Assembly (NCBI GenBank): GCA_003344405.1
Contig: NOWV01000011.1
Span: 620,001-684,000 of the forward strand
From: Trichoplax sp. H2
Lineage: Eukaryota
Direction of reading: 5' to 3'
DNA: 64,000 nt
Part shown: positions 1,843-47,689 of the stretch, piece by piece
Position numbering within the stretch: position 1 is the stretch's first letter
How the letters are laid out: each line of letters opens with the position of its first letter
Made by a program: the position numbers and the translations under genes
Notes under the pieces: model-generated
The model's input: the letters and a program-made list of their open reading frames with translations, nothing else
What the model was told of the DNA's origin: nothing
The model's database searches: none

Positions 1843-2042
1843 GTAAATCTAGACAACACCATAAAAATGATGAGCAATAATTTAAACTCGTCATCGATAA
1901 GTTAATAAGTCGATATTGTATGATAGAGGTGGAATGGAGCATGAGCTTCGTAAGATAATTGTTAACTATATCTGTACAGTAAATCTAGACAATACCATGA
2001 AAATTCGGCGTAATAATTTAAACTCGCTATCGATAATTAAGT
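1843..2042. repeat. Diverged direct repeat of about 62 bp (2 copies) in the paralog D intron
   Basis: gtaaatctagacaa(c/t)accat(a/g)aaaat...aataatttaaactcg...atcgataa at about 1843 and about 1979. Confidence 0.8.
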
Positions 2043-2439
2043 TACGGAATCATTTCATACAGTTGGAACGATATACCGTAAGAAATAGTTTCTTATCTAA
2101 CTTACCACGAGATAATGTTGTCATATATATGTAATAAAATTTAAAATATACTGGTAAAGTACAACGATGGAAACAGTGAAAAAAATGGTAATGGATCTGA
2201 TAATAATTACAAATGATAAAGAATTGCTGTTTTATCTGATCTGGAAGAAGATTTCGAAGAATCAAAACTTAGATTTTGATAGCTAGATTGGCTGATGCTA
2301 TTAGTAAAACTTTGGTATAATAGAAAAAATAATATGATAATAAGGACTATGATAGAACGGTTAATCTGATCACTTTTTCCTACTGAAAGAGAGTCTTTAT
2401 ATTTTTATAAAGGGGCATAAAATTTTGGTAATGACTTAC

Positions 2440-3004
2440 TTAGCATATTGGCTACTGGCAAGGTGATCGCGCTTGAATCAGGTCCTACAACTCCTATAAC
2501 TCCTCTGCTGTCATCCGCTACTAAATGTTCTAGAAGAGTTTGATTACAACCATGTCGAGTTAGTTCGTGATAGTCTACAAGATGAAATTTCTTTTCCGAC
2601 CATGGTAGAAAATTAATTGATTGTTGTAGTGTATGCTTAACGTTCGAACAAGTATCCCGAATATCGTATCCTAACGTCACTCCAGGTAGAAGATTTTTAT
2701 CTCGATTAATTTGATCCACAGCATAAATCATTGCCATCATTTTGTATAACCCTCTAAAAGCAAATTCATCACATTGACCAATAGATTTATTGTAACTGTA
2801 ATGGGCAAAAAATAAACCTCCTAGAATATAATCGCCGTCATGATAAATTGCTAATGGATTCGTTTCCAAGATTTTATATTTCTTTTGATTATTAAGGCCA
2901 TTAACTGGACATGATGATGTTATACATATCAAGCAAATTATCAATAGAACTACCCTTATTTTGATAGATTGCATGTAATCTACTTGATCATATTTTACTG
3001 CCAT
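2440..3004 (-). CDS. Class C GPCR (CaSR/mGluR-like), paralog D, first coding exon only; the rest lies beyond the left edge
   Basis: Hydrophobic signal-like N-terminus, then Venus-flytrap motifs GDYILGGLF, AMIYAVDQIN, LLPGVTLGYDIRDTC and VIGVVGPDSS. Phase-1 donor A|GTAAGT at 2439, the same position as in the three paralogs. No exon 2 found in 1-2439. Confidence 0.88.
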
Positions 3005-23900: not shown

Positions 23901-26657
23901 GGCTCCATTCTTGGTCTTGATAGTTTTAAAACAGATGTTTACTATTTTAAAATATCTATTTTTAGGGTGCTATCCGTTGCACAATTAGTTCAGAATGAAA
24001 ATGAAAGAGTCTTACGGCATCAATTTAGATTCTGTATACAGTGTATTTAAATGGAGTTATACTTGGAATGTAAAGTAGACTCTCACAACAGCTTCCAAAC
24101 TGTTCTAAATTCCTGAAATTAAGTACCGTAGATCTTTACCGATATACTGTAAAGTTCTAATACTAGATGATAGTTAGGATATAAAACGTGTACAAACGCA
24201 ATAGCCTTGAGCTATTCTCCCTTTTATTTTACTTGTGAAAAACATAGTACGGTAATGTGATAAATTTGTAAAATTATTATTACATCATAAAATTCATTTC
24301 AATAGATTTAAAACTGTATCTAGCTATCAGTGCTATCCAGAATTAGTCATAAACTGTAATAATGTCGGTGTTGTTACACAGATTGTAAATACCATGGCCG
24401 GTAGTGTTGACTATTTTTAAAGTTAGCTACAACAAAGTACAACTATGTTGAAGTGGTACAAAAGGTGCACAAATTTTCAGTTGCGTAGAAAACTGTAATA
24501 GCCTTTAAAAATCAATCTTCTACTAGGTCAAGTATGCTATAATTGATATAATTCAATAATTCTTACTGTATTATGGTCGTTAAATTGTAAATATGCTACA
24601 AATAAGCTGGAAATAGCTAAATTATCATGGTAATTGTTCTTAAAATTGCAATTTGCAACTATAGAAATTTTTTCAATAAGAACTTATAAAAAACTCTGTT
24701 TTACTCTCAATCATTCGCATTTATCAATTGTGAAGAAATTTACGAGCCAGTTTATTACATAAGCTATAATCCATATGCTATCCAATATGGTTAGAAGATA
24801 TTCATACTGTATTATTACTTATGATAGCTTTTGTATGCTATTTATAGCGTATAATATTACTGGTATATGGCAGTTACGGTACTACTTATTCATCTCAGCT
24901 TGTCTAAGACTTTGGAGATAGAAAAGTTTTGAATACAACGTATCTCTCAATCGCATTCAGTATCCATAACGATGGATGGTATTGCTATAGTTGATTCATA
25001 AATCTTAAGTATTTTGGTCTAGAAATAGCATTTAACCTAAAGTATCTTGATAAGTCAATTAAAGCCTGACCTCTGGTATAGATTTGCATTGGAGAATATC
25101 AACCTTCTTTTACAGTACTTGACCTTTTCTATTTTACCGTAAGCTATTAACACTATCAAGCAAAATGATGTCATTCTAATTTGAGTTGAAAGTTGTATTA
25201 GTGAAGATATTAAGAATTAAAATTAAAATAAATCTTTACGTAGAATTATGTGAATACAGAACTGCAGCTGTTGTAAATAGAAAAATGGCAAATCAATAGG
25301 ATACTTATGGGCAGATTTATGACGAGAGTTTATGATTAAGAAATGTTAGCGCCCTAGTTCTTGCAATGGGTCTTGCAAACGATAAATAATTATAAAGCAA
25401 GCAATTTATATCTGATTTTTTGCATAATTTAGAAACGTATACAATCATAAACAGGTGAATGCATTTTTTAAAAGTAAATCGATGATGTCCAGTAATTTCA
25501 TACTAAATTGTTGTAAATGGCGGTAGATTATCTAAGATTAATGCAATCTATTGCCTCGTACTTAAGATTTATACTCAAGAGAAATCTTGGGCGATAAATG
25601 TTGTCGTCAAAGTCGAACATTTGTGATATATTATACATGAGGAAATTAATGATTTTAGATAATTTATTTGTCCATACATTACTTATACCAACTATAAACT
25701 GGCCGATAAAGGGTCACAATAAGTTACTAGTGTAACTTTACTAGAAATAATATTTTATGTAAATTGTTTTCTGTAACCTTGTCATAAATTCCAATCAAAT
25801 CTAATTGCTTAGTCTAATCCTCTACTTTAGCCAATCTTGCATTAAGTAGGTATTATCAATATCAGTTAAATTTGAACGAAATAATTATTTTCCTTGCTGG
25901 ATTATTTTTAGAGAATTGAGTAAATTTCGTCATATAGATCGTGTATGGAACTTACAGTAATCACTATCAGTCTTTTACAACTAAGGAGCTTGAGCTGACT
26001 AAAGCAAGTATTAAAATGAAGTCATGAAACAGGTCATGAAAATAGCATCCCATATTAAAGCCTACAACTGTAGATCTTTTCTGTTAATCTCTAGAACTTA
26101 AAATATTTACACTTACCTAACATGCTTGCGGTAGCTTTTGCAGCATTAGTCATTGTTGGACCAATAACTCCGAGAAAAGGTGAATAAAATGATTCAGTCA
26201 TTCCAAAGTCATGTAATGCAATATTGTAACAGTAATATCCATCGTATGTGCCCTCTGCAAAGGGCAATAAATGCAGTAACAACTCCATTGTTTGTCTAGA
26301 AGTTTGCAAGCTGTTGTAACAAGTATCACGTATATCATAACCCAATGTAATCTCTGGTAAAAGTTTGGGATCGTTATTGACATTGATAATAGCGAACACC
26401 ATAGCTGTTACTAAATGGAGGCCATATTCATCAATGTCTTTGCATTCTCGACTATTTGTATCATAACTATTATGAGCTGGAAAGAGACCAGCAATGACAG
26501 CATCACCAGATTCGCTCAAGCTGAGAGCATTAACAGTTGGTTTTTGCGTATATACGTCGAGTAATGATTTCTGGCAATTAGTTGGAACGGATAATAAGAA
26601 CATCACGGTACAAATTAGTAAAAACTGGCTCTTTAATTTTCCAATTTCACACTTCAT
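20945..26657 (-). CDS. Class C GPCR paralog A, 2 exons: 26117-26657 and 20945-23277, about 957 aa
   Basis: Donor G|GTAAGT at 26116 and acceptor TAG| at 23278 join in frame (ML-G-NFDVIDVSP). Motifs LLPEITLGYDIRDTC, DAVYAMAHALH, TPIVKASN, LPDNFNEAR and FVPKVY. Confidence 0.93.
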
Positions 26658-26970
26658 CTTTCCAAGGATGAAATTGTTTAATAATAGATGGTAGTAATAA
26701 AATGGCTAACTTTAGTCTCGAAAAAATTTCGATACCGCTGTATGATGAAGGTAATTATTTAAAATTTAGGTGAAATTATTCAGTTAAGATGGCTTCTGTA
26801 CGGCAAAGTGGAGATTAGCATGATCTTACTTTGACAAGAGGGTGGCTCTTGCAGTTTTTAAAACCAATAAGCAACTTAGAAATGACTTGCGTAGGTATGA
26901 TTGTAATAAATTTTTCAGCTTATGTTAGTGCAATTAGGTAAATTTAAACGTCCTTCCATTAGCATCAGTC

Positions 26971-26978: not shown

Positions 26979-29842
26979 TATATCATCTATCACTTGCTTT
27001 AACGTCAATAGCAACTTTACAGTATTATTTACCGCTACCTTAGGCTACCATATGTCTGATTGCCTAGTGATCAATAATTAATATTCTTCAACCTAGAGTA
27101 AGGAGAAATTTATTAGACTAGTTGAAGCTATTGTCGACATTATATTAGAATAGCTCTAAGAGTAATTTTCTTTTATTTTTTTAATTTTAAAAATTTCTAA
27201 AGGATTGAACTTATTTTAAAGATATCCAAGAATAGAGATTTGCTTTATACACCTGCACAATATTCTTTGTAAATGAAAATATTAATTTATCATACCAACC
27301 ATGTCAAATCCAGGCAGCGATTTAAAGATTCTGTAAGTTAAGACTAGCAGTACTGCATAGTAATTTAAAGTATTATTATTAAACGCAAGCGTCGATATTG
27401 ACATTTTATTTTCAGTGGTGTGAAACGCACTGCAAGAATTTATGATCCAGCCTGACTAATACGTCTTTCATATTAAATTTAGCTTCAATTACAGAATGAT
27501 ATAATTTAATTGATTTATTCAATACTAAATCAGTCCTGTGGTCTAGGTAGCCATTGAACCAGATTAGATAGAATAAAGGCATACTAGTTATAGAGATCAT
27601 ATTTGCAAGTCAATCAAAATGACTTCTGACATTAGGATTCGTAAACTAATTAAGCTGATATTGACATTGTTACCTAACGGCCAATTTACTCGTATATAGA
27701 TTGGTATATTGACTGCATTAATTCTTTTCTTCTAAACGATTTCTGATACTAGGAATAATAAGCTAATTAAGTTGATATCTACACTGTTGCCTAATGATCA
27801 ATTCAAGCATATATTTATCAACTACTCTATTAAATAGATATAATTATTATTAAGCGAATAAAATTTAATTCTGTTAATAACCATTTGTTATGAAAAATTA
27901 CGCTAATTGTTAGTATTCAAAGAAAGACAAATTATAAAGCTTGGATATTCAATTTTAAAACTATCATGTCTCCCAACACTGAATAATAGTAATCATAAGA
28001 AAGCGATGACGCAGAATTTATTTTATTTTAATACCTTTGATGCAATATACCGCAGTGATAGTTAGTATCGAAAATAATCCGGTACCGAGATATTTCATCA
28101 TAGATTATCGAATAATAGATTACATTTTAGTTCGATTTTGATAAATACTGTTTTATTTAAAATAATTAGTGGAACCTTCTAAGTAGAAACAATCAGTCAC
28201 ATATACTTTCGTATCTAAGTCATCGATTAAGTTATTACTACTATGGTAGCTTTTATTAATTGTCACAAAGCACCTTTGGAACAAGATAACGTAATGTACG
28301 ATCAATAAGTCAATTCCTTGAACCATGTATCAAAGAACGATATCTGCACTATCAAGAACACTTTTGCTCTACTAGCAGACAACACAAAGACTTAGACGCC
28401 TCATATTTCACGTTAAATACTAAGTTTAAGAATTAACTTTATTACACGATATACCGCATTTATATACTCTCCCTCAATACTTCATGAGTCATAAAATAAC
28501 TATTAATTTAAGTATATGTAGATATTTCTACTCTAATACAGTATATAACACTGTCACAGTAATACATCTAATGTGGACATTATGTTATAGGCTGCCTGCA
28601 TAGCAGCTAAGAGTAGCTGGACTATCTTAATATCATGTGCTATCTGTAACATAAATGCGTATGAGCTATCAGAAACGTAAGCTAACGTTAACATTTATAC
28701 CTAGTAGCGGGTTAATTACTACACTAATTTCTATAGTAGTTCGATTTCCATCGAATATCTTCGGTAACCTAATCAAATATTGCCACTACTAGAGCGAAGC
28801 TTGTCAAAAATTTAGAAATCTAATGTAGAGTTTAGCATGGCTAAGCTTTAGCCATAAGAGATAACTTTTGAGTTAAAACTAGCTTCTTATTACTGAGAAA
28901 TTTAAGTTAATTTTGGAAATGCAGTAGATGGTTCTACCTGTGATTAAATTTGAATTCATATATCTATGCTCAAAAGCTGTTGCCGTAATTATTAGTAGCA
29001 ATTGGCTATCATCATAGTAATATTCATGCATTGCTTGTGGATAGGAGAGCTAATGTGCGAATATTGCTTTATATAAAATGCGTATTACTATAATGGTTAT
29101 CTTACTAATCTGATCTATATTTGCTAGAGCTCTTTACATTCCATATACAATTAGAACTGCTACTAAAGCTAATATTTGAAAGGAATTTGACTTAATTCAA
29201 GTCTATAGAAATCTCTTATTTACCAGTTTTTTAATCATCTCACCTTAGTAAGAGATCATCATTCTTTACATGTAAGGAATACAAACCTATTTTGTATTAC
29301 TCAACTTGGGTTAAAAGACATAAAGTTTATGAGAAATATCTTGCATGCATAAATGTACCGCTCCATTAACGTATCTAGTATCTGTCATGCCCTTGAAAGC
29401 CGTATGATAATGGTACCATATTAAAGAGACGCACATGATCTGATATATAGGTACAAATTTATTGATTTTTAAACTATTTCAAAATAAAAAGGTTAAGACC
29501 AAATAAATATACAAAATGCTGGCTACGATATTACAATAAATATACAGTGTATGATATTTCTTTAGAGGTATGGAATACCTACATTGATTAAAAAAATGGC
29601 TCAATATTGGCATTAATAATTGAATATCAGGCTATTTATCAACTGTAACAGTTAATATTAACTCTATAGATGAGTTTTGTCGCATAAAATAAAATTAAAA
29701 TCGAGAAATTGCTGTTTTAATATGAGATAAATGTAGACTAAAGGAGTATAGGTTAGCATTTTCCTTGATATCAAACAGCAACCACTTATGTACTATTTTT
29801 TACTATAGTTTTATAAAAGCTATTTGAGGTCAGTTAAGAATT

Positions 29843-32800
29843 CTAATAGTCTAAACTCATAAGAAGAGCCGTTCCACGCTTGATCCAATGGTCTGCAGTA
29901 ACTGATCCCACCTTAATATCAACGGAGACAACAAATGAAGGTCTACCTCCGGAACCTGAACGATTTGGGTAGTAGTAGCAAGGACAAGCATACATTCCTG
30001 ATAGAAACAACAAGGACAGATTATTTAGTCTTTGGCTGTGCGCTTAAATAAAATCGTTAAGTAGGGAGTAAGAACTTTAACAATGTAATAAAAATCATAT
30101 AGAAGCAATGATACCTTTATTTGATTTTCTTTTGTTTTCAACTGGCTTAAAGTGAATAGCCGGAACTGGACATACTAATTCCATTGGATCTGCTTCAATT
30201 AAGCAGGAATTTTTAACGTCCCAACCAGCACCTTCCAAGTATAATCCACGTATCCATACACCATCCTACACAATATAAATTAATTTATGGTAGATTATTA
30301 AATGTTTATATCAGTCACAATTATGCTAGAAGGTATCGTGTCATAGCACCTACAATGACTTACCTTGGGTGCTTGCATTATATTAGAATCATCAACTGTA
30401 GAAACCGGGAATTCCCACGATAAAGAATCGATTGAGACCTATGAAAGATTGAATATTGGACTGGTTTTAGTACATGACGTGATCATTTGCTCGCAAATTG
30501 CCTTCTTACATTATTCTGGCGTGCCGAGGTTTGTAGTACAGCAGTTAAGAAACTGGTTGGAAATGTAAAACCAGAAAGCCAAAACAAGGTTGGTGGATGA
30601 GCAGTAATTGCCCATTTACTAAATTGCTCTACTCGAATCACGAGATCTCTCGTCCAAGCAGCTAAAGGTTTCTGTGATGCATAGGTCTGCAAAACATTGT
30701 TACATTTCAGCTTTAATAACAATTTTATGACTTTTGCTAGTTTTTAAGAAGCTGCAGTACCTTATTCCATAATGGCGGAACTCTTCCATCAAATATGCAT
30801 GAAAATATTTCCTCTAATGCAGCTGACATAACAACTAAACCCTTAATCCCTTTAGCCAAGTCTTGTAGAGATGTCCTTATAGTTTGTAGTAAGCTATTAT
30901 AGCGTGCAACCTAATTCAGAAATGGAAATTAAAACCGTCAACGGTAATACTAGAATTTATTGATCACTATTGTATCTAGTACAAAATAGGATCTTTTAAT
31001 CTACCTCTTGGACTAGTACAACATTGATTGGTGAAGGATCAGATATTAGAATAGTTTCTGCGCTTTCTCGGTCGAGGTCTTCCGGTATACGTTTCAACAC
31101 ATCAGCTGCTAGTTCTTGGACCTGGATATTATCAATCTCATATCAGAAATTTTATTCTTATTACGACTTATTTCATGAGATTATCGTATAAATTGCTTCA
31201 AGATATACCCTATCTTCTCGACTCTCTCCTTGGGCAACCGAAACTTGTGGCTTCAGTGACAGCAAAGTATCAAATAGCATCCTAAGGAAAGTTAATTGTA
31301 AAAATTTGGTTAAATTTAACGGAATTAAGGATAACGTGTTTACCTAAAATCATCATTTCCTATAATTGGACGTGGATTAATATCTAAAATATTACAACAA
31401 TATTTTCTTTATTACCTAGTTTCGATGATTTGACTTGCAATATCAGCATTTGGATGTTGACCAAAAGCTTCTGGATGATCCACATTTGGCAATAAGTTAA
31501 TATAATCCTACGTTAAGAGTTGATAAATATAAATTTGTTGATTGAAATCGAATTTTTCTTAATACTCAATATCATAAAATACATAGAATTTTAGGTTACG
31601 AACCAGATAAGATTGCAATGGTCCGTCTTTGGGAATATAGTATGTGGCCATTGTTGATAACCTGAGAAAGAAGACATTGATAGATAAGTATTAACAATTA
31701 ATTGTGTACATATAATTCATGATAGCTGGTACAAAATAAGATATTTTCTATAGAGAATGATAATATCATTTACGTAGCTAAGACTAACTTATAAAATGGA
31801 TTTTGAGCGGCAGCGTCGCAAAAGATGTCGTTGATATAGGTATGTAATAAACGTCTATCCCAATCGTCAGTAACATGTCCTCCATAATTAACTCCAGCAA
31901 TCAAATATTTTAATGCATCCCATGGTGTCTCATCATATTCATCCAAGTATAATGATAACAAATCGTTTGATACTTCAAAATCAGAATCATTGAATCCATA
32001 AATAACATTCCAGCCCAACATTAAGAATTTCTTCCTTTCCAGTAGAATACTATGGAAAAAGCATAAACCAAATAACAATTTCTTGAATTTTTCCGGTTTG
32101 CGGCAATTATTAAATTGTTCATAGGTGATCGATTGATAGAGACGTTTCATATTGGCTTTTAATCCTTTAGGTGGTTCAGTAGTCATTTTAATACCCGATT
32201 GCAAAATTGATATTGGAAATTCTGGATGTGGACTGCTACTTAGCCATAAGCGAAAATCGGGATGAGGATTTTTAACCTGTAATTGCTCAACTATTTTATC
32301 TAATTGAGGCATCCAACTTAATGATAAATGACAATTGGCTAAGAATACCCAATGGCCTTCCATAATACCTTCACGAATCATTCGTGATGCTATAGGTGAT
32401 TGGCCTTGACCTAATGATAGCGAATTATATCTTTTATTCATGTTATGCTTATCTGCTAATTGAAGTAATGCACCAGATGGATCGACACCAGAAGAGAGAA
32501 CAAATATAAGTGGTGTTTTAGGACTTGAATCATCTAATACTGAATTCATATCGAGTACAGGTGGTTCAACAAATCGTGAGCCAAGATTGTTAATGATAAA
32601 TGATCCAACAGTAAAAGCAACACGATCAGGTCGTAGTGATCTTACAATCAGCATTTTTTGCAATTCATTGCATGCGTTATCCCACTCTCCAGGTAGCAAA
32701 GCATTTTCAGGCTCGGAACTTGTAAACCAAACATGCCAATCTCTTGCATATTGCTCAAATGATGTTACTAAGCCATGGAAGTTGGTTAACTTATCTAATT

Positions 32801-35800
32801 CAGTAATATGATCCCACGCTGCTTCTGATAACCATTTGCATGGATTCTCCATTTGATTTTCACGATCGATTACGGTACCGCCACGTAAGAAGAAATTATA
32901 CTCTTCCATATTGAGTTTACCAGCAGCTTCTAAAATTTTAGCGCACATCTGGAATGAGAAAAGCATTTTATGTCGTTCGAATAATGCCCGACAGGTATAG
33001 CGATAAACGGCATAGGTGTGATAATCATTTAACGATTGAATTCTTTCTTCTAATTTTGAACTACGTGAACTCTTATCAATGGATCCATTAAATAGTTCAA
33101 TGTAGGAATCTAATGAAAATTGATACATTGGATCAATTCGGCCCATATCATTAATGACGAAGAATAGAATGGAAGCACGTTGAGCACATGGACGATAACC
33201 TTCACGAGCTGTATCAATTTTAATTTCAGTTTGTTCGCTAATTTGTAATTGCTCAGATACTTCTTGTGATGTGGTCTTAGATGTTTGCAATGTATTAACC
33301 AACTGTTCATCATCCAACAGTGAACCTTCAGCTGTATTTAATAATTTCAATATTTCATCCTCTAATTCAACTAATTTTTTCTTACCAGCAGCAATACTCA
33401 TGACCAATTTATCTTTTTGCTCTTCAAGATCTGGTCGTTCCTTTCGCACAACAATACCAAGTAGTTGCGCTTGTAGACCTTGTTCTTTAACAGCAAAGTT
33501 GACAATAGTTGTCTTAGTGGAAATCTCCGGTGAGTAATGAGGATTACTTAATTTAGTTGTGATGTAAAATTTAAATTCTGGATTATAATCAATTTCTTTA
33601 TCGGCTAAGCGAATAAAGTACTGGCCACCTTTACGTATAATAGCTTTATTTAAGATAGGCGACAATGATGGATCTAGTTTTTCCTGGACATTATGCAATA
33701 GAACCGGAGTACCAAATTGAATTGAATTCTCTAGAACTCGTATGTAATCGGTTTGCTGTAAATCGATGATACTCAACTTATTCCCTTCCATATTTTTAAT
33801 CCATTTCAATGCTTGTCCTTGCGGATCAATCATTAATGGCCAACGATTGCCGCGAGCTACTATGATACCATTTTCAGTTGAGAACGAATCATTAGGTAAA
33901 CCTTGTATATTCCAATCGCGTACTGTTGTTGGCTTAGCCATAAAATTAGCGAAATTTAACTCTGGATTACATGGTACATGCAATTTGTAGATTTGCGGCA
34001 GCCATATACCATTAACTAATTCTTCACGATAACCCGACAAAAACGATCCAACATAAGATAAAAATGCTGCTGCTACTAAGCAATCACCAGGCAGATAGGC
34101 AATATTAGATTGCAATTCAGTAACACTATTTTCCCATCGCAATTTTTCACCTGATAGACCAGCAACTAATCTACCAGCACGATCTAAACGTAATTCGTTT
34201 AATTCAGCAGTTTTACGTAAATCGTCCTTTTGCGCTAATTTCTCATCGTATTCACGCTTTAATTTTTCCATTTGATCGGTAATTTCTTTCAATTTACTTT
34301 TAGCTGCAGCTAAAGATCTTTCTTTTTCGTGTAATTGAGCACGGGCATGATTTAAACGTTGTTTCTTAGGCTCAACAATACGATAGATGCGTCCATATAA
34401 TTCAGTAGCACGCACCCACATACATAACGATTTAGCTGCTAATGATACACGACCGATAATATCAGGTTGGAAATCCGATTGAGAGCAATAGCCAGTTACT
34501 TTTTTCAACACACGATCAGTCATATGATCTTTATCAAAATTAACTAATGTCTTAATAAAGTTAGTTTCCCCAAGTTGTCGTTTTGCTTCGGCCCATGTTG
34601 GTTCAGCGCCTAACAATATCATAACTGCTTCCATAACTTTTTCCACTAGAGGTGGTGGACGCCCGTAAGAACGAATTTCTGTAATATCTTTCTTATTCAA
34701 TGCTTCTAACGCTTTAACTGCTTCTTCCAACGCTGGCAAGGCTTCATCAAGATCATGTTGTGCAGTCTCTGCTAATTGACGACATCGTTGTTCTTCTTCT
34801 TCGATTTTCTCACTCCGTGCAGCGACTGTTTTTTGATGCTCATCTGTCTCACGTTTTTGCTGTACAATGATCACTAAATATTCTTCACATTGCTTCTGAA
34901 ATTGAGCTACTTTATTCTTGGTTCTTTCCAACTCGATGGACATGGTTTCAACCTTTGTTCTCGTTTCATCAATTTTCTCCAAACCATTGCGTAATTTATT
35001 TGCTTCATTCCCTAACTCTTTCTTTTTCTCATGCAGTAGACTTTTATAACCTGCTACTAATTCTAAATAATTAGTCGGTGTAACATAATTACGACGTTTC
35101 ATTTCTAACCACATCTTTTCCGACATTTTAACCACTGAACTATGAATAGTAACGAATGTTTGAGCAATCTTAGGCTTCATTTCTTCAAGATCGCCCACAT
35201 CAACTGTTTGGAGATATTTTTCAGCCACTTCTTGCAATGCTTCTTCTGGCCATTCTCCAAACCAATCGATGGTAGTGCAGTTAACAAATGCTGGAAACAT
35301 ACGAATTCGATTTCGGAAGGTCTCACCAACTGGACTCATGCATAGTACAATTCTTAAGTTACTACGCACTCGTTCAATTAAGTAAGCGAATAGGCTGTCT
35401 GTAGTATCTGGAATGCCATCAGTTTTAGCGGCTTTTAATAAACTCTGGCGGACTTCCTCGAATTCATCTTGTTTGTATAAATTAGGAACTTCACCGCTAC
35501 TTAAGATATTGTTGATATCTTCCAGGAATGATTCTTGAAGAACTTGAGTATCGGCAAATAGGAAAACTGTTGGTTTATTTTCCACTCCAGTTGTTCGATA
35601 TAATTTTCGGATATCTTCACGGAAATCGGCCGATCGATAATGCCTTGTGACTTCAACTTGGAATACTTGATAATTTAAGATATAAGATACTAGCCGAGTT
35701 AAACTTCGTCGACCACTACCACCTATACCTAATAATAACATATTGCCACGCGGTTGGCGAATAACACGAATAATGCGACAAACATGCTCGACTGCATCAC

Positions 35801-38800
35801 GAAATAAGACTAAATCCATAGCAATCGCGCCTGGTTCCATATTATGATCTTCAAGTTGATTTTCTAAGCATTGCTTTAAATTAGCGAAATCAGTCATATC
35901 TTCATAGATTTGATTTTCCTTCATGAAATCGCCGAAAATAGGTACTTGTCGATTGGGGCAGATGTTATGAAATGGTAAATCAAATAGTGAGCCTAATTTT
36001 TCGGAGATTAATTGCTGAAATTCTTCACGATCTTTTTCATCGACTAAACGATCAGAAAACACTCTAAAGCATTCATGTATCCATAGCCGAATAATACTAT
36101 GCTTGGTATCATGGAAATCACGATGGGAACGCAATAAACCCTGGAATACCTTAGATATATCTCTCAAGTTAAAAAGATAATGTATTTTAGTCGGCGTTGG
36201 CAACATTTTAGATACAATTGAATTATAGATATCAATCGTTGCTTGAGTCATGATATCACCTAATGGTTTAATATCTTCTTCAAAATCTTGTAATTTTTGA
36301 TTGATCATCGTACCGTAGATGCGCTTGATTTGACTTTCTTGTGGGAATGTCATATTAATAAGGTTAAATCGGCTTTGTAATCGACCTGATATAACAGTTC
36401 TACCACCACCAGGTGGGCCCATTGCGGCTAGTAAATACATATCTTTGATATATTTAACAGCTTGTTTAGAACGATCATACCAGAAACCGTAATCGAGCCA
36501 TTGACGAATTAATTCTAGTGGTGGCTGTGAGCCATAGGTATCTTTGGATGATATATTAAAGTCGTCCATAAAGGTTAATAATTTTTTCCCACCAACAGGT
36601 ACATAAACACCTTTGGTGCGCTTTTCAACACGACTTTCGATAATATCCTGGACATTATTGGATGATGTCTGAGCTGACATGTTGATAATTAATTTGCCAT
36701 ATTGCTGTGGGTCAGCTCTTGAAATGACTCCTTGTGCAACGGATGTTTTCCCTGTTCCTACTGGGCCGACTAAAAGTGTTGGTGTTTGCGATAGTAAAAG
36801 TGATTGGACCAAGAAATCATAACGTAATGTATCCACAGTGGGTACAATAATCTTATAGAAAGGTAAATTAGGACTATATTTCCAGCTAGTGTGTAATTTC
36901 GACTCCCATAGTACCCATGTTTTCTGCTTAGCATCGACAAAATATTCATAGATGGTATCTTTGCTGGGAAATTGGCCTTCAATTTCACGTAAATAATTAT
37001 CCATTTTTTTACGACTATGTTCATCGACTGATGCACAGATCGACCAAATGAGAGCAAATAGAAACCATAACTCGATCATTTTAGTATAGTAATCATCATT
37101 GGGTTGGACACCATTTTCAGCTGTTGCTAATGCATCAAATAATCGACATAACGATTTAATATTATTCAATTCAGTAGTCGGAACAAGCTCAGTGCAATGT
37201 GCTTGCTTATAGTCTAATATTTTTTGAACGTATTTGTCAAATAATCGCTGTAATTGTTCAACTGAATTGCGATCTTCTCGTTTTTGTAGCCATGATGTTA
37301 CATAAGGTTGCCAGCCGATATCTCGATAATCTGTATAGACCATACCACAACGACTAATTGTTGCTGGCGAAGCAGCTGCTAAACTATCCACTTCGAATAA
37401 TAATGATACCTGTTCAGGTAATGATATACGCTCACCGTTGATTAAAGTTAAAACTTTATTGTCGTCCATAACAGAATTCATCGATTCGATCCATAATGTA
37501 TCGACAGGGCCATCAAAGACGAGCCATTTCTCATCTAATTTCTCATCAGAACATGTTTGACGCATAACACTGGATAAAACACCATCTGTCCATTCATTTG
37601 TTGATAAATCAAATTCGCCATACAATTCACCCAAAGATAGTGATTTAGGATTAATGGGGTATTCTTTAACAACTTGATAATTAGGGTCATTATGGACTTT
37701 TTTCATTCGTGTCATTGCAGCTTGTAATGTCTTCCAAACGACAGTTTTACCTGATTCAGTTTGACCTATTACCATGACGGCATGGCGTGAATTTTTAGTT
37801 TCATATAGTTGCAGTACTTTCATGATTAATTTCTCATGCGGTTGTAAATTAGATGATTTAAGTTCTTCTTCCACCACTGTACGTAATTGACCATATTCGG
37901 TGGTTGGCGCTTCGATACCAGGGAATAGATCGGATATGATACCGTTAAATAGCGGTGCATCACTTGATTTTAATTTAGCGATATTCATATCTTTCATGGC
38001 TAATAAGAGAACTTCTTCATCGAGCATATCTGTAAATTCTCGTTTCTTTCTACCAGCATATTTTAATACTGATACAAGTGCACGTAGACCGAAATCATAA
38101 TGATCTTGTTTAGATAATTGCTGCACAGCTAACGAATAGAGTGTATGGACTTTTTTGGCTAAGACTTTGGTATTCGAAAAGCCTTCAGCAAATAAGATGA
38201 TTTCAGCAATTTGAGCTGAATCTGGTACTACCATAGCAATGGGTCTAAACATACTCTTTAAATTGTCGGGTAATTCAGTTCGGCCAGCATAGCCAGGATT
38301 CATAGTGATAAAGATACCGCATGAACCAACTAAACTAATTTCACGACCTTCAAATACAAATCGTTGCGCACCATGTGATAGTGCCGTTAATATGGATAAG
38401 ATTTGTTGAGCAACTACAGATAATACTTCGACATTGATACGATTAAATTCATCGAAACAGCCCCAAGCACCCGTTTGTGCCAAACCGCTATACATTCTAC
38501 CCATAGATTTATAATCTAATCCTTCTGAACAGTTAACAACAATAACATAATTTCCCAATGCTTTTCCTAAATCTTTTGTCGTCTCTGTTTTACCCGTGCC
38601 AGCAGGTCCTTTAGGACTGCCACCACGGTGAAGATGGAGCGCGGTAGTTAGTGTAATGTAACAACGATCTGTTAATGGCGTAATAACTAATCGTCCAGAA
38701 TTACCTAGATACTCATAACCATATTGAAAGAGTGTGTTGGTTTGGCGTACAGCACAATCATCAAGTTCTTTCTCCCAGTAGACTCGCAATTGGCTTAGCC

Positions 38801-41800
38801 ATTCGAATGAAGTAATATCATTGCAGCCAGTTTTAATCAATTTCTCAATAACATCACGGGCATGAACTTCAATCGTGACTAAAGCTACTAATTTACTACG
38901 TTGAATTTTTGACAGATTACCTCGAATCATTTCAGAGAATTTATTCAACATCGATATCTGCTTCTTTTTTAAGCTTTTTAAAGCTTTCTTCTCACCACTA
39001 TCTTTAACAGAATTCAATGCTTTAGTCACATCGGCAGTCCATTGCATTTGACTAGCCACAATAACCAATTGGCCAGCCCATTCACGAACCCATTTTTCAC
39101 GCTTATTTAAATTTTTCTTTAATTCATTACGACATCGTTTCAGATAATCTCTTAAATTCATTCTCATAGCACTTTCAATATCGCATAACCATGATTCAAC
39201 TGGCCCTTCTAATATAACTGGTTGGATATATTCGATTGATTCGCCATCAGCCGATGTCATACCTAATGCTTCTGAGCGTGATAAATTAGCTTTATTTAGT
39301 TTTAGTGAGTAGATATTATCAAAGCATTTTTTTAAATGAGGTTGGACTGCATCTGGATTCTTCGATTGGCCAAGTATTTCAAGTAAATCGTCATTCGATA
39401 AGAAATAAAATCGTGGAAATACTTGTCTTTTGGTTTCTAAAAACATATCCAACGATTTTTGGATTTCTTCTAGTTTAACATTCATGTCGAATAATGTTTC
39501 TAACATGCCTGTATGATGAGTTCCTTCTAATGCATTATTTTGCTTATGAAGTCGATCCATGATACTCTTCCAGTTAGAATTAACAATATCGAATTCCGCT
39601 GATTCTTTCGGTAATTGCTTTCGGATATCTTCACCTAAGAATATATTCTCTAAATACATCCATTGACGCTGAACTGTTAAAATAAGTTCGACCACTTCTA
39701 AGATATGTGATAGAGTTCTTTCCCATTTATCAACTTCTTTTTCAAATGCTCGTACATATCGTGATGCTTTTACTGATGATAAAGTGACTTGATTATCTTC
39801 TAATTGCTGGAATAAGTCGTCAGTTGCACGCAATTTAAAATAATTACGATCTTTATGTCTAGCGATATCTAAAGTCATCGCTTTCCAAGTACTAGAGATA
39901 TCTTGCAATGCTAATTCGATAGATAATTCTTTAGATGCAGCAGCCGAAATTTCACTAATAATATCAGAAAACTGATCAAAACCCAAATCAATCATTTTTT
40001 CTAAAGTAAATTCTTTGCTAGTTTGATCAAAAGGTCTTTGCATTTCATTCTTAAGCTGAAACCAATGACGATCTCTCATAGCTGGATTTTTCAAATCAAG
40101 TATTAAAGGAAGTGTTCGCTTAAATTGATCAATTCGACCACGTATTGTATCGCAAATCTCCCAATTTTTGTCTTTTAATTCACGGCATAGTTTGTTGACC
40201 TTTTTCAACAAAGATTGAGATGTATATTCCATTGATTCGGTGACCAATTCCATGAAAATTTCGTTTTTCCAATTGGACCATAATTCTTCCCATTCTTTAG
40301 TATGAGTCCAAATTTGTTCTAGTTGATCGACATCCTTAAAAATGAAGCAAGGAAAGTTTAATCGATTGCCTTCGTGGTGACTTTGAGATTAAGAATTACG
40401 ATTGGTATAAGAGATGAATTGGTAATATTTTATTGGCTTTGCCTATATAAGTTATGTTATATGTGGACATATAGAATGTCCTGCCTTACCTTTTCTAGAT
40501 TTGCAAGTTCTTTGGATGGTGGGTGCTCAATCTTAAAGATACTTAAACCATGCTTTATCATGGATTCTTGTTCTTTAAGAGCTAATAGCTGATCATGGAA
40601 TTTACTAAGAATCTCTAAAGCCTGTAGGATTTAAGAATGAAATTTTTAGAGAGACTTATTGACTGCAGAAGAATATCATTTATACGCGCATATTGATAAA
40701 AGCTATGAAATTTACCGTCTCAATAACTACAGTGCTTAAGAATGGTCCCTTGTTATTGAATTCGTCCCTTAAGTTCAAAATACTTCTCTTAAACTCATCA
40801 GAAGAGTGTAGTAAACCAGCTTTGAATTTTTCCTATATAAATGCCACATTAATACAGTGTTAACCATATATAGCATTACTTTTACTGAAATAAGAAACAG
40901 TTTATGTAATAATTCTTTTAAGTAAATGCAATTAATTGAATAGCTTTAAGTCTTATTTCACATTAGATATGTAATTTCTAAGTTTAGATACCTTATGCTT
41001 TTTAAGCATGATATCAGAATCCATTAAGCATTGTTGGAAGGAAACCCATTCGCCATTAAGATCATTGAGCATCTTCTGAACCTGTATATTTCGTTTTAGG
41101 AAGATCATGAATCATTAAATTTATTTAATGTCTATTAGTCTTAATTATAACTATCTTCTGATACGTACATCAGCAGGAACTTCTACTTCGTACTTTTCTA
41201 ACACGGCAAACTGTTCGTGTAATGGAGGAAACTTCGATTCAATTTTAGGCAAGTCTAGCTGCAACTGTTCTAAAAGCGCTAAACTGTTACTTAGATGTGA
41301 TAGTGATTGAGGTGGAGTCCTTAAATTTTCAGAATTGGTTGATAAGAATTCGTTTAATTCTTTCAAACGTGTTGTCGCCATCTCACTAAGCAATGTTGTG
41401 AATTTATTTTGCCATAAACTGCAATGATGATGAAGAGCAGCCTTTAGTGGTGAACAATCTAACATAACAAATTGGATATTCAACACTGTTTCCTCTTTAG
41501 AAACATTATTCGCAACTTCTGTATATCTAGCGATATCAGCATCAAATGAAGATACTGGTGGATTAAGATTTTGATAGCGGCGAATGAAGGCTTCTTTATT
41601 AACTTCCCATATATCTCTGTAATTATCCCATTTGGCTAAGTAGTTTTGTACATGGGTTTCATTAGTATCCAATCCAGCTAAAATAGCGCTTTGTATCTTT
41701 CGAATTTCATCATCACGTGAAATAATAGCATAGATTGCTTCTTTATCAGATTTTTCAGGTGTTAGTAAATCTGGCAAGCGTTTGATACATTTCATACACA

Positions 41801-44800
41801 CAATTAACTGCTCGGTTATATCTTTAACCATAAGCGCTAATTTTTTAAGTGAGGGTGAAAACTCAATCTTGTCGCCAATTAGTGTAACTTTTACACGGAA
41901 TAGCGGATTAGGTGAACTTTTACCATCGCCATTGATAACACGCGATAATTCTTGTAGTGACCATTTAACGTTTAACCTACAAGCCTCCTCGACCATACGG
42001 TCCATTTTTGCAGTATAACTTCTCCAGGAAGATTGTACCTTAAGTAATAAAAGTATTTTATAGCTATCACTATAAAGTAACGTATTGGATGAAACACCGA
42101 AAGAACTATTACTTACATCAGTACCGTCCCCTTTAAAAACTTCATATACTTGTTCCATTTTCTCGACGATGCCATGATGAATTTGCCTTAATTTTCTTTC
42201 TACAATTAGTCTATGCTGAGCCTAATTACAGAAAAATACTTATGATACAGAATTTATTAATGTAGACTATTTTCTTATTTTTAAATTACCTGATCTTCAT
42301 CGAAATCCAAATCGTCGTATACTCTCTTTTTATCCACTCGGACTAATAGCAATTCACTAATACGCTTACATTGATCTGATATCGAAGCATTAGCATTTTT
42401 GTAGTCACTAACGATAGCTTGTATCTAAATAAAATACAAATAAATATCAATGATAGTTAATTGAAACGGCGATCTAATGCAAGTGTACAAGCATTTCCAT
42501 CTAGCATGAAAGTATAAATTACATAAATTATTGTATGTGTAATTAAGCATATTTTCATAGAGCAAATATTGGTAAGCAAATAACCTTGCTGGCGTGTAAT
42601 CGACATTCACCGATAAAGAAATCGGATATGCCTTTAGTTGCCCAAGTTAACTTTGTAAGACCTGGTTGGATTTTCTTATCTAAGTAGCGGATTCTTTCTT
42701 TAAATAAGCCGCGCTCTTCGTTACTTAACGATAGTATGATTCTGAAATTGAATAAAGTAGCAATCCAGATTATAATTTACTATGTTATTCAAGTGAGAAT
42801 CATGGTATAATATTTCAATTTACCCGTTGTAATCACGAATAACTAATAACACGTTTTCGCGTAGTACACGTAAGTCTTCTCGCTTTTGATAGACTTCAGT
42901 AGCATAATGCGGTATTTCAAACATTAATCTCTCCCAGTAGTGAATTTCTGAGAATAGTTTCAATAGAGTTCTACCGAATTAAAAACAGATGTCATAAATA
43001 TTAAATTTGGTATCTATTCTTTTATTTAATCAACACTATTAACTTGAATAAGGCGTATAACTTAGTTATCAGTATGACTCTTGTCCAAATTTAACAATGT
43101 TTAACTCTAAGTGAATACTATTGTGGTGACTTACTTGTCAAAATTTAAATCAAGCATAGCTGGGTATTCAGCACTTCTATGCATTAGAGGTACTTCCAGT
43201 AATTTCATTAATTCCTAATCACATAATGGTATTACAGTTTAATAATGATGAAATAGGATCAACCTAATTAGCATCTAGTGAATTGCTAGATCAATACTTA
43301 CTCTGTCCACTGTACTTGTCCACTCATTGAACATTTTACGAACATATTCGTCTAATGCCTACGATGATCATAATCATATGTGCGGTAACATTTTAGTATT
43401 ACGAATTAAATTTAGTTCTAATTATAATTTAATAAAGTATCATTTATCAGTCATCATATTTGTTAACAAACTTGGCCTAATTGTTGATATTGAGCCCTTA
43501 TTTCGTCGCCAGTGCCAATTTGGGGCAGGAAGAATGCTTTCTCTAAGATCTAATGTGACCAATAACGATGGAATTATAAAGACCGTAGTATACGTTTATA
43601 CAGTAGTTTTATATCTAGAATTGTTTTTAAGATTGGTCCATCAAGACGATGATAATTTCTTTCATGTAATGTTCTGTAAACTTACCTCCATTGGATAATC
43701 TATTCTCTTTTTTAGAGCTCTTGCCCACTGTGCTGAACCAGCATAACGTGGTTCGAAAGGAGATACTGCTGGAGTCTTAGTGTTAAATTCCTTCTTGACT
43801 AAGTTTAATTCCTCATTAAATAGTCCATAGACTTCCACAGTCTTTTTATCAATGGTACGCCTTATAGCCTATACAAAATATAATCAAAAAGAGTCATAAA
43901 TAAATATCACAGGATACAGTGAACTGCGCTCATTACTTAATTTGTTGTATATCTAACCTCTCGTGATGATAAATGGCGGAAGAAATCAAGTAACTCAACA
44001 CCTTCTTCAACAGTTATAATCGTTTCAAAAGCTGATGTTATCACATTTTGCATCATAACTTCTAAATCTTTTATGCCAGTTTTAAATCTATTAGATAGAA
44101 TAATTCATGTCCATTTAAATGTTAAAAGAGTTATTAAATTCACAAAAGTGAGACCGAGTTATATAATGGGTTGTTGTATACGGAAGTACGTTAGTTAAAT
44201 TGAGAATAAATTGTTAATGTCGTTATATGTAATTTTTATGATGGCGTAGACAAATAATGCGATATTGACTTACCTATTGTAATCATCATGCCACGAAGAA
44301 GCCTACCAATACAATTTAATGTGTATAGTTACATTTAATAGATTATGACTGTAGAGTAGTAATAGATGTGATCTAGCATCAAGCTAACCTTAACATCCAA
44401 GATGGTTTTCTTTACATTGCGTAAGATTTGTAAATTTTTATTAAATGTAGCTTCGATTTCCAACAAACTTCTTGTAATGTCAGGTCCACGCAAACCGTGA
44501 AATTGTGGCATTTGAATTTTGTTGCCGTCATGACATCTTGCAAAATGGACTTGACATTCACAAACCTATTAAGGCAATTAAGATTTGATTAGATAAGGTT
44601 GCGATACTATTTATAGGCGAAATATAAAAATGATAATGGTAAGATATAAAAAGTTACCTCTAGTAAATCTCTACAACGTTGAATAAATGCATCAACTTGT
44701 GCAAAAATACTTGTTCGATCTAATACCCATTTTTGTTCGCTAAGATGGTTATGGACCTTACTTATCTAATCGATTACGTAAGAATTATTCTAGTTGTAAT

Positions 44801-47361
44801 ATCTCTTTATAAGCAGGTAAATGATAAATGAGTGATATCTAATCTAGTTTTAAGCCTATTAAGATGAATAAGGATGCAAAATAACCTTATTGTATGTTTC
44901 TTTCCATGATTCACAGCAACTTATACTTTCATTTAATGCCGACGTAGTTTGAACAATTAAACCATTAAAGATGTCATCCAGCGATATTGTATAGCTACAG
45001 CGCTTAATAATTTCATTGCTAACCTATAAATAATTAGTTTTAAAAAGTGTACATATAGTATCAATATATTGACTCTTTTATGTAACGTTATTATTGTTTA
45101 GTTCTATATACTGCATATTTGAGCTTGACTGCTTATAAAATTAATGGATTTATTAGATTTCTTTTTTAGGCTAGTCATGAAAGGTTCGTGGTTGCTATTT
45201 TTAATAATATAATACGACTACAGAACGAAACTGTTACAACTGTTGAGCAATGTTATTAATTACTTATAACTACTACACGTATTAGATTCGTCTAAGTAGA
45301 GTATAATGAATTTTTAAAATTTATTAATTTTATCATAATTAGAATATGAACAAATCTTACTTTTCTAAGTAAGCCAGTTAATCGTTCACGAGAGTTATAA
45401 TACTCAGAATTGATCCAAATCATCCGTATGATGTTCAGAATACGTGGCAACTGAGAACTAATTTCCGACGGAAGAGATTCTGATAGGGTTAAGCAAGGTT
45501 CTTTTAAGGTTGATAAAAATTTCAGATTACTTTGTGCTTGAGCCGAACCATCCTAATATTGTGGTAATATAATATGAATAGCATAGGGTGGTTGATTTTT
45601 TTATTTTGAACGATTAATCGAGTAATTCCTGTCATTACCTGGATTAACTTTGATAGTCTTATAAATGGAGATACATAGGAGGATTTAGCATGCTCTAGTA
45701 TATCTCGAATTCTCTTAACACCTGGCCTATCTAACTGCTCACTAAGACCGGATAAATCTAAACATCGACTTCGCCAAAATTGGATTTCTTCCAATGGCCC
45801 AGAATTTTCATCAGTTTCAACCGCATCTTGATTGCTTAGAACTTCCTTTATTTGACGAGTCCAGTGGATCATAGAGGCTGTTGTTAATAATAAATAATGA
45901 ATTTGCTTAGATATATTAAACATGGGTAAAAAGTGAATGTCATAATATAGATAAGATTTGCTCTAGTAATTTTCTTATGTGACCTTCTAAACGCTGGACT
46001 AATTCTTTATTCTTGACAGCAGCTTCGGCATCGATGTTTAACCCCTCATCAGGTACATATAATACGGTGTGGCCATCCATCCTGTGAGCTGTATCCGTCA
46101 AACTAGCCATAAATTTGTGTGTCTGCGAAGAAAAGTCATTCTTGATACCTGTTGAGATGTTGTGTTAAGGCTATTCTATCCAATTTTTCGTATCTATCGA
46201 TTCCCATACTAACGTCTAACTAAGACGTACTGTTGTCTAGATATTGATAAAATACTTAAGAATAAAAGGATACTGTCAGGCCATGTAGCATTTCGTAGGA
46301 AGAGTGGAGTATATATACTTGACATTAGTCTCAGCAGGCTTTGTATTGAATTTGCCCTAACGGTTCCATATTGTAGCATAGAGTTGATATTGTGCTGCGT
46401 TAGGGTAACTTTGGATGATCGAATGAAGTATGTCATTTCATCAACCTAATGGAAATAAATTCATATCCATTTCGCTTGGTGAGAAGTATTTATAGGTAAT
46501 GGAAAGGTATTACACACCTGATGAGTAGATATTGAATGGGACAAACAGAGGCCATGTTTAGCATCAATGTATCCAATTAGTAAAGGTGTGTTGGGATCAT
46601 CTAAAAATCGTTCCACAACGTCATCGTGCTTTTCGCTCCACATATCAGGATTAAAGTTTCCAAGCAGAAAACGATCTTTCACATAAGAAATCTGATAAAA
46701 TAGATATTATTAGATATCATAGCTAATATAGTGGTGTGATCGTCACAATATCTCAGACCAACAGTAACGTCTAGGCGCTTACACATCTTAAATTCAAACT
46801 GGTTACTGATGTACTGTAGTTAAAGTATTTTGAAACTTTAGATAGGGTGTCAATTTATCCTGTTGTCTTAAGATTCTTAACGGGCAACAAAATAAAATAT
46901 TTGCGTTTTCGAAACATTATTGCATATTTTAAATTATGGGTACTTTACATTAATTATATTACATTGACCAATAGTTACGATTAAAAGTGGCAGTAGATAG
47001 CTAATCTAAATGGCTGTGTTTGGTAATAGACTCCTTTAGATAGGCTATCACTTCTGACTTCTACCAGAACAGTACTTTACATTATCAAATAATAAAAAAT
47101 TGCTTTATCGTAGAATTGATAAATATAGAAAATGATTACCAAATCGATAGCAGGGGCAGATTCTATATTTCCTTCGTCCATTGAACTGCCATTAAGGTGA
47201 TTACTCTGCTGTAGTGTATCGTCCATATTACTAGATGTATCATGTAATAATCCATTTTCCTTAGGAGTGTCTGCATGTAGCGATTCTTCTTTACTGTCTT
47301 GCTTTACAGGAGTTGAACCATTTAATGTGTCGTGAGTATCCGCTTTTACTTCTGTATCCAT
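29843..47361 (-). CDS. DNAH2: Axonemal dynein heavy chain, inner arm I1/f beta type (DNAH2-like), about 32 exons including one of 8546 nt (31789-40334)
   Basis: P-loops GPAGTGKT, GQTESGKT, GPVGTGKT and GIGGSGRR; CFDEFNRI; stalk coiled coil. Tail motifs WPDSIKNDF and GPLEEIQFWRSRC. C-terminus HWIKRGTALLMSLDY* (stop 29843-29845) matches DNAH2-type chains. Nine small 3' exons and about 22 5' exons splice in frame. The start ATG at 47361 is less certain. Confidence 0.92.
46149..46273 (-). other. U12-type (minor spliceosome) GT-AG intron in DNAH2
   Basis: 5' splice site GTATCCTTT. Branch point CCTTAAC (46164-46170) lies 15 nt before the CAG. Splicing restores WPD-S-IKNDF. Confidence 0.8.
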
Positions 47362-47689
47362 ATTGGCTATTTACTATACGAATACTTGTTCAACTGTAGT
47401 AAAAAAGTGTTCGCGGCCCACTGTCCGCGGTAATGTTATTATAATACTCTAAATTTAAATTTGTAAGCTTTGCTTTGGCAATGTTTGTAGCAAGGACAAT
47501 TTGATTTGTTGTATGACGGTCACTATGACCTGTAATAAACGAATGTTTGTGTGCCGTACGTTATATACTGTAGGCGGTTGTATATATTGAATATCAATTT
47601 GTCATACAATATAACGTAGGGTAGTATCCATCTATCTGCTTTTAAAATGCAATCTTAATGAAGAGCTTTAAAGCGACAAATTACGCACG

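Follow-up and report, generated by a model that had tools for sequence, protein, structure and literature searches.

An 8546-nt intron-free exon in the intron-dense DNAH2 gene of Trichoplax points to contiguous loss of ancestral introns

The concerted loss of neighbouring introns is the chief evidence that spliced RNA can rewrite genes, and the cases known to us involve a handful of introns each. In Cryptococcus, according to PMC2395259, runs of adjacent and often internal introns have been lost, and these losses were ascribed to mRNA-mediated recombination. Herein we describe what appears to be a much larger event of this kind in an animal, found in a stretch of 64,000 nt from Trichoplax sp. 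H2 (GenBank assembly GCA_003344405.1, contig NOWV01000011.1, positions 620,001 to 684,000 of the forward strand). Below we call this whole stretch the window and count coordinates from its first letter. The window is AT-rich (GC about 30–40%) and carries, on its minus strand, a gene for the dynein heavy chain DNAH2, in which nearly the entire linker and motor are encoded by one exon devoid of introns. An earlier note on this DNA had proposed that the introns were lost as a block by recombination with a reverse-transcribed complementary DNA (cDNA). The gene models are public and this type of event is well known; what we consider unusual is its size, its sharp edges within an intron-dense gene and a parallel case in ctenophores. 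We found no prior literature on this exon or on intron loss in placozoan dyneins.

The structure of the gene was established by splice-aware mapping of two public proteins onto the window. The first of them, P0123 (a Trichoplax sp. H2 protein of 4496 aa, sharing a 90% cluster with the second), maps with 0 mismatches and delimits a coding sequence (CDS) of 13,488 nt, or 4496 codons, distributed over 33 coding exons within 47361-29846 on the minus strand. The second, P0003 (TRIADDRAFT_23475 of Trichoplax adhaerens, 4324 aa), gives a 30-exon structure; 3 of its residues do not agree with the window, so that it comes from another assembly or strain. All 32 introns of the P0123 model are of the GT...AG type, 68–448 nt long with a median of 97 nt, and an RNA contig of 3574 nt from run X19 splices the 5' exons as P0123 does. 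It is also worth mentioning that three exons present in both the H2 model and the X19 RNA contig are missing from the older model P0003, namely the true first coding exon (47140-47361) and two internal ones (44886-45023 and 44658-44765).

When the translation of the giant exon was used for a protein search, 2566 of the 2569 scored candidates reached E <= 1e-50. The top match was P0003, identical over the whole aligned block (100%), followed by named DNAH2 orthologs of cnidarians, echinoderms, molluscs, chordates and a ctenophore, at 69–76% identity. Against the PDB, the first 578 residues of the exon matched mammalian and human DNAH2 best (884 and 878 bits), then the Chlamydomonas inner-arm I1 1-beta chain (608 bits), while the next class, DNAH1, scored 414 bits. 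Pfam domains follow each other in the protein in the order DHC_N2, AAA_6, AAA_lid, AAA_7, AAA_8, MT, AAA_9, Dynein_heavy and AAA_lid_11, i.e., with the linker, AAA1-AAA6 and the stalk with its microtubule-binding domain (MTBD) arranged as a dynein heavy chain requires. Since both the identities to named orthologs and the PDB bit scores favour the DNAH2/I1-beta class, the gene is, as judged from its sequence, the placozoan DNAH2, an ortholog of the inner-arm I1/f beta heavy chain.

The giant exon, number 24 of the P0123 model, occupies 40334-31789 on the minus strand and, with its 8546 nt, makes up 63% of the CDS. It is part of a stop-to-stop frame of 2872 codons (40388-31770, minus strand), starts in phase 0 behind the acceptor TTTAAG, and ends at the donor GTTAGT; in protein numbering, it corresponds to residues 1300-4148 of P0123, 1128-3976 of P0003 and approximately 1226-4075 of human DNAH2. 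Retained introns delimit it on both sides, namely intron 23 at the 5' edge (40335-40489, minus strand, 155 nt, phase 0) and intron 24 at the 3' edge (31662-31788, minus strand, 127 nt, phase 2); at the junction of the latter, a 9-residue gap in a lizard gene model (P0254) comes to its end. The 5' part of the gene (exons 1-23, 40490-47361, minus strand) has 23 introns in 3897 nt of CDS, one per 169 nt, and the 3' part (exons 25-33, 29846-31661, minus strand) has 9 introns in 1045 nt, one per 116 nt. Taken together, the flanks have 4942 nt of CDS interrupted by 32 introns. This density of 6.48 per kb predicts 55.3 introns in 8546 nt, where 0 are observed (Poisson P(0) = 9e-25). Among the other 32 exons, the median is 136.5 nt and exon 20 (42038-41169, minus strand) is the longest, at 870 nt. 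Overall, the picture drawn in the earlier note holds: the mapping reproduced the borders of the giant exon to the base, as well as those of the 870-nt exon and the count of nine 3' introns, and it turned "about 22" introns on the 5' side into 23.

Exon 24 encodes the linker (DHC_N2), AAA1-AAA6, the stalk/MTBD and part of AAA_lid_11, as seen with Pfam; the motor modules inside it include the hydrolytic AAA1 site, AAA lids, AAA3-type and AAA4 modules, AAA5 and the P-loop-like domain of AAA6. An alignment with nine orthologs revealed one insertion and four deletions, each of a single residue, over 2849 residues. With only these five one-residue differences, there is no in-frame retained intron within the exon, and the absence of any longer insertion excludes the conversion of former introns into coding sequence. 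Long "deletions" at the ends of the same alignment were dismissed, because the open frame extends into intron sequence there and this overhang had been aligned wrongly with the termini of full-length proteins.

An intron-free stretch of this kind might also have arisen from cDNA contamination or a chimeric assembly, and for this reading the archived sequencing runs are most informative. Twenty of the 24 runs listed for 31600-41200, which stem from 7 studies and carry two organism labels, contain at least 0.82 of the sampled sequence words. Reads or contigs of four runs were further compared with 29500-47500 at a likeness of at least 80%. Run X3 (DNA, label B) provided a contig of 2595 nt that covers 31719-34313 with 10 differences and no gaps and includes 70 nt of intron 24, and another of 8710 nt that covers 34315-43024, intron 23 included, with 23 differences and again no gaps. 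These contigs pass unbroken from exon 24 into the introns on both sides. They stop one base apart from each other and do not bridge position 34314, which is bridged by the window, by P0003 and by run X21. The latter run has label C and a longest record of 148 kb, and is probably DNA. Five of its contigs, which abut or overlap, together span 31787-40336 with approximately 84–87% identity, one of them, 4722 nt long, with 677 differences and 18 gaps over 32047-36755. The match ends within two bases of both ends of exon 24, with 52 and 209 unmatched letters lying beyond, and elsewhere X21 contigs align to single exons only (30505-30693 and 45637-45889). Because nothing except single exons matches outside the block, X21 is best read as genomic DNA with diverged introns. 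P0003, which derives from a different assembly, has the same giant exon as P0123. The continuity of exon and introns in X3, the identical ends in X21 and the agreement of two public models mean that the giant exon is real in genomic DNA, is common to three placozoan labels and predates their split. A single contaminant common to all data sets would, in addition, misfit the 14% divergence of run X21. Thus, the assembly chimera that the earlier note had allowed for is refuted by independent genomic contigs collinear with the exon and its flanking introns, and we give an artefact practically no credence. Two other signals were set aside. Apparent "joints" within exon 24, with sides of 20–47 letters taken from contigs of 6–24 kb, are conserved motifs of paralogous dyneins rather than splicing, and the patchy coverage in run X1 is a filter effect from which no inference was drawn.

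Was this region ever interrupted by introns? Vertebrate DNAH2 is rich in them here, as the earlier note had stated. Residue 4240 of the human protein is placed in exon 82 (PMC8103034), and the human variants c.9004 and c.12720, 3.7 kb apart in the cDNA, are 27.5 kb apart on chromosome 17, if the same genome build is assumed for both reports (PMC12076239, PMC8103034). Dynein heavy-chain genes of the elephant have 43–92 exons according to Table 1 of PMC3162530. As regards animals in general, PMC3174169 infers for the metazoan ancestor an intron density of 120–130% of the human one and reports that 75–80% of human intron positions are conserved with other Metazoa.

For the outgroups of Trichoplax, several kinds of marks were used to locate introns: open reading frames (ORFs) on genomic or partly spliced contigs that run past a splice site into non-homologous sequence, isoforms diverging at a single point, gene models that carry foreign residues or skip a segment, and incomplete models whose first or last residue lies at a junction. 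Our argument is built on sites where several unrelated taxa are marked at the same residue, each checked by eye, and not on the 242 raw events within the block; site numbers below are those of P0003. Six such sites are marked in a sponge or ctenophore as well as in a cnidarian or bilaterian, namely 1181, 2102, 2892, 3313, 3676 and 3915. All six introns are absent from Trichoplax, with no insertion or deletion at five of the sites and one missing codon at the sixth (3313).

The individual sites, all on the minus strand, are as follows. At K1181|D1182 (40172-40173), isoforms of the ctenophores Mnemiopsis and Bolinopsis differ by 5 residues ending in Q, and a rattlesnake model has an insertion of 17 residues. 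At Q2102|V2103 (37409-37410), where the Trichoplax DNA reads CAG|GTA, an old Mnemiopsis model has a 10-residue insertion ending in Q; here also a partial Porites model starts, a cave-fish model ends and a 47-residue gap of a woodrat model begins. Close to K2891|S2892 (35042-35043), three ORFs of a sponge (Geodia) cluster begin after a non-homologous head of 5 residues, and a Stylophora model breaks. The site K3313|L3314 (33776-33777) is marked by the head of a sponge ORF ending in Q, by an annelid insertion of 8 residues beginning with V, and by a gap in fish. In sponge, mouse, Nematostella and Clytia, this intron is followed by a residue that is missing from Trichoplax and the ctenophore; an alternative NAGNAG acceptor was rejected as the cause of the missing codon, given that species keeping the intron have S or G there, with codons that do not end in AG. 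Three sponge-cluster ORFs end within codon G3676 (32688-32690) or directly after it, while other sponge contigs read through as if spliced, and capuchin and horse isoforms carry 62–64 foreign residues at this site. Finally, at E3914|V3915 (31973-31974, phase 0), two ctenophore ORFs stop matching and continue with V (GTx), the reading expected of an intron that starts with GT, a cat isoform has an insertion of 53 residues that may be read as V...Q, and a turtle model breaks and resumes.

Further sites are marked in fewer groups. A hydrozoan ORF, a cockroach model and an ant model, hence Cnidaria and Bilateria only, coincide at G1630|; a hydrozoan ORF and fish models do so at approximately 3198, with a sponge model starting at 3205; turtle, fluke and ENA ORFs are marked at H2644|; and isoform X3 of Nematostella diverges at 3796. 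Trichoplax has no intron at any of these four positions. An additional intron at 3362 is marked by the sponge-cluster ORFs. As a control, we asked how often marks outside the block fall within 2 residues of a Trichoplax intron: 35 of 226 events did so against 21.1 expected (P = 0.002), and 17 of 82 against 8.2 expected in the better-aligned part (P = 0.003). The bulk signal is real but noisy, and its specificity is modest; a separate gap analysis of 120 full-length orthologs contributed only 11 events within the block. Since, under either current view of the animal tree, any intron that bilaterians have in common with a sponge or ctenophore must have been present in the placozoan ancestor, the six sites place the losses in the placozoan lineage. 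Such evidence indicates that the absence of introns from the block is a derived state, brought about by precise and contiguous loss, rather than an ancestral one.

Ctenophores complicate this picture. A ctenophore-cluster ENA ORF of 1618 residues (P0145), 99% identical to the Mnemiopsis protein and located on a contig of up to 708 kb, runs unbroken over P0003 2314-3914, up to the phase-0 intron shared with mammals; a second one (P0146, 1530 residues, 92% identical) lies on a 6.7-kb contig. Early animal DNAH2 might thus have possessed a very long motor exon, cnidarian and bilaterian introns being mostly later gains and placozoans having lost few. Several eukaryotes indeed have ORFs of 850–1570 codons in this gene, and one residue at 3626/3627 is absent from sponge, ctenophore and Trichoplax alike at a point where bilaterian models break. 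However, the sponge-cluster introns at 2892, 3313, 3362 and 3676 fall inside the ctenophore block, and those at 2892, 3313 and 3676 coincide with discontinuities of corals, annelids, fish or mammals. Moreover, the introns at 1181, 2102 and 3915 are shared by ctenophores and vertebrates and absent from Trichoplax, and the very high density reconstructed for the metazoan ancestor in PMC3174169 also conflicts with an intron-poor beginning. We therefore deem partial ancestral paucity quite unlikely. The earlier note had stated that its reading would fall if outgroups also lacked introns here: ctenophores do lack them over more than half of the region, whereas sponge and bilaterians have them there, and we do not think that the partial absence in ctenophores overturns intron loss.

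Given the introns that sponge and bilaterians have in common within the ctenophore block, the simplest reading would be two independent and parallel block losses with different ends. Ctenophores lack the introns at 2892, 3313 and 3676, which sponge has in common with corals, annelids, fish or mammals, and keep those at 1181, 2102 and 3915, all of which Trichoplax has lost. In the literature we searched, no description of the ctenophore intron-free stretch of at least 1600 codons was found. The residue at 3626/3627 (window approximately 32836-32840) deserves an observation of its own. It is extra in cnidarians and bilaterians, and the intron suggested by the broken bilaterian models may be a gain in the cnidarian-bilaterian stem. 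At the other end of the gene, a scyphozoan cluster (P0311-P0314, on ENA contigs of up to 1.2 Mb) has its last DNAH2 exon unbroken over P0003 4201-4323, spanning two Trichoplax intron positions; hence Trichoplax keeps, or has gained, 3' introns that the jellyfish lacks.

How might so many neighbouring introns have disappeared? In our preferred scenario, a contiguous run of ancestral linker-and-motor introns, at least six of them documented and approximately 55 expected from the flanking density, would have been precisely removed in the placozoan lineage, which would have fused approximately 56 exons into one of 8546 nt. Most likely, spliced cDNA made from the gene's own mRNA would have recombined with the chromosomal copy, by gene conversion or by a double crossover, either in a single very long tract or in a few that overlapped in succession. 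With exchange points internal to the cDNA, the 9 introns on the 3' side and the 23 on the 5' side would survive, and all this would have happened before the split from the relative that is approximately 14% diverged in this exon. The giant exon has probably persisted because introns of approximately 100 nt let splice sites pair across the intron instead of the exon; that a giant internal exon does no harm next to short introns accords with the argument on exon definition in PMC2614967, and the application of this argument to Trichoplax is ours. We consider the scenario as a whole moderately probable and infer, rather than observe, the cDNA intermediate, the number of events and the reason for tolerance. 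Of the original proposal, the derived and contiguous loss is thus upheld, and the reverse-transcribed cDNA, the single event and the internal priming or internal double crossover behind it are conjectural additions to it. The note was also right that the retained 3' introns speak against a simple poly(A)-primed loss with a 3' bias, all nine of the most 3' introns being kept.

The same outcome could be reached piecemeal, by the loss of introns singly or a few at a time through small cDNA conversions or exact genomic deletions, favoured or tolerated in a very long and highly expressed gene and ending as one block. The 870-nt exon 20, which holds the Pfam domain DYH2-5-8_CC, lends itself to such a view: within it, a 10-residue difference separates ctenophore isoforms at P0123 997, P0123 1101-1151 is left out of a gibbon isoform and several vertebrate models have gaps, so that it is probably a second, small fused exon spanning ctenophore and vertebrate junctions. 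In addition, the ctenophore block, being shorter than the placozoan one, looks like an intermediate, and the missing codon at 3313 implies that at least one loss was not letter-perfect. However, random losses would not spare 32 flanking introns (6.5 per kb) while clearing all of the approximately 55 between them; were the six documented losses scattered by chance among 38 introns, all of them would be neighbours with P = 1.2e-5. Genomic deletions are seldom exact, yet only five one-residue insertions or deletions are found, and the same two block ends already exist in the relative diverged by approximately 14%. Such evidence makes us regard piecemeal loss as improbable.

We are aware that a number of points weigh against loss through cDNA-mediated conversion. 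Outgroup introns were located indirectly, by the points at which ORFs end, isoforms differ or gene models go wrong, and not from annotated structures, and the method is noisy, with only 16 of the 32 Trichoplax introns marked at least once. The 3' bias expected under the poly(A)-primed model fails, since the nine 3'-most introns are retained, and only the variant with internal loss fits. A single tract would require both a cDNA and a conversion tract of at least 8.5 kb. Transposable elements are few in Trichoplax: PMC2871265 counts 139 putative elements, of which 11 are gypsy-like with a recognisable reverse transcriptase, and describes them as ones that "appear to be inactive". Lastly, the ctenophore overlap (P0003 2314-3914, over half of the region) could mean that part of the block is old, against which the sponge-bilaterian sharing at 2892, 3313 and 3676 argues.

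It is tempting to go one step further and suppose that the DNAH2 motor is a repeated target of large independent block losses in early-branching animals, the placozoan block being one near-full-length cDNA conversion. We propose this only tentatively. Even more concretely, though it is a doubtful conjecture, the placozoan tract would have reached at least 8.5 kb and cleared approximately 55 introns, and the ctenophore one, overlapping with it but shorter, would have reached at least 4.8 kb. If so, the placozoan conversion tract would be among the longest known. A possible reason might be that, in animals propagating by fission, the ciliated body cells that express the gene strongly also found the next generation. 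Here one gene has kept 32 ancient introns at both ends and lost all of those across 8.5 kb, and a second phylum has an overlapping but different block. Such a case offers a natural test of the length limit of conversion tracts, of internal versus 3'-primed loss, and of whether exons escape their usual size limit when splicing works through short introns (intron definition). It follows as well that an intron absence common to ctenophores and placozoans is an unsafe phylogenetic character.

Several observations were made along the way in wider homolog scans. In metagenomes, 79 loci were kept, the closest three at 74, 67 and 58% identity. These three were rejected as intron evidence, being mRNA-like contigs with one long ORF each. 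Another locus (L048, approximately 48% identity, a possible ortholog) showed approximately 29 exon-like matching pieces in the region and none of the three hydrozoan sites. All 27 loci from the scan of prokaryote genomes were protist or paralogous dyneins misbinned in metagenome-assembled genomes (MAGs). Among them, L103, whose record reads "MAG: bacterium", was rejected as an ortholog: it is an intron-rich dynein paralog with at least 20 exons and 30–66% identity. Loci L081-L102 are likewise eukaryotic dyneins in bacterial bins, and many rumen "Bacilli" and "Elusimicrobia" bins hold protist-like dyneins, which looks like binning contamination. A cluster including P0053 and P0162, on JGI contigs of 17–22 kb, is approximately 69–71% identical to Trichoplax DNAH2, and its whole frame of 4503 codons is unbroken on contigs of approximately 22 kb; either the gene is wholly intron-free there or the contigs are long transcripts.

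As for the rest of the window, it is not uniformly made of small exons. Three long open frames of 2.2–2.4 kb lie in tandem on the minus strand at 7322-9487, 14272-16638 and 20945-23293. The last of them, the only long frame tested, encodes a class C G-protein-coupled receptor (7tm_3, ANF_receptor and NCD3G in Pfam), and a piece of ANF_receptor was found at 26091-26705, so this part of the window probably comprises a tandem receptor array with long exons of its own. A Pfam search of 65 flank ORFs gave no match for 64 of them and one sub-threshold ARGLU match (52234-52389, plus strand, E = 0.0027), leaving the neighbours COG3 and PARL and the intron spacing ascribed to them unconfirmed.

Overall, the locus may be set beside four known systems. 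Vertebrate DNAH2 (NM_020877) is orthologous, with 70–72% identity over the block and the same domain order, and the human gene differs from that of Trichoplax in having dozens of introns where the latter has none, as its exon 82 (PMC8103034) attests. The ctenophore gene (the Mnemiopsis/Bolinopsis cluster: P0075, P0145 and P0146) resembles that of Trichoplax in its intron-free stretch of at least 1600 codons in the motor region; its block, as deduced from isoforms and individual ORFs, is the shorter of the two, and its ends differ. A processed retrogene shares with our block an intron-free coding sequence derived from spliced mRNA. Unlike it, the block belongs to a resident gene, is surrounded by 32 introns, bears no sign of a separate insertion and encodes a protein under normal conservation that is expressed as one spliced mRNA; the flanking introns and the RNA contig that splices the 5' exons rule out a processed retrogene. 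The internal intron losses of Cryptococcus come closest, for there too, as PMC2395259 describes them, neighbouring introns were exactly lost, introns were kept on both sides and the loss was not limited to the 3' end. The scale and the setting differ: five genes of Cryptococcus are reported there to have lost "several" adjacent introns each, whereas in Trichoplax the block extends over 8.5 kb of CDS and an estimated 55 introns, with a mechanism that we can only propose, in an animal genome that is otherwise dense in introns and has few retroelements.

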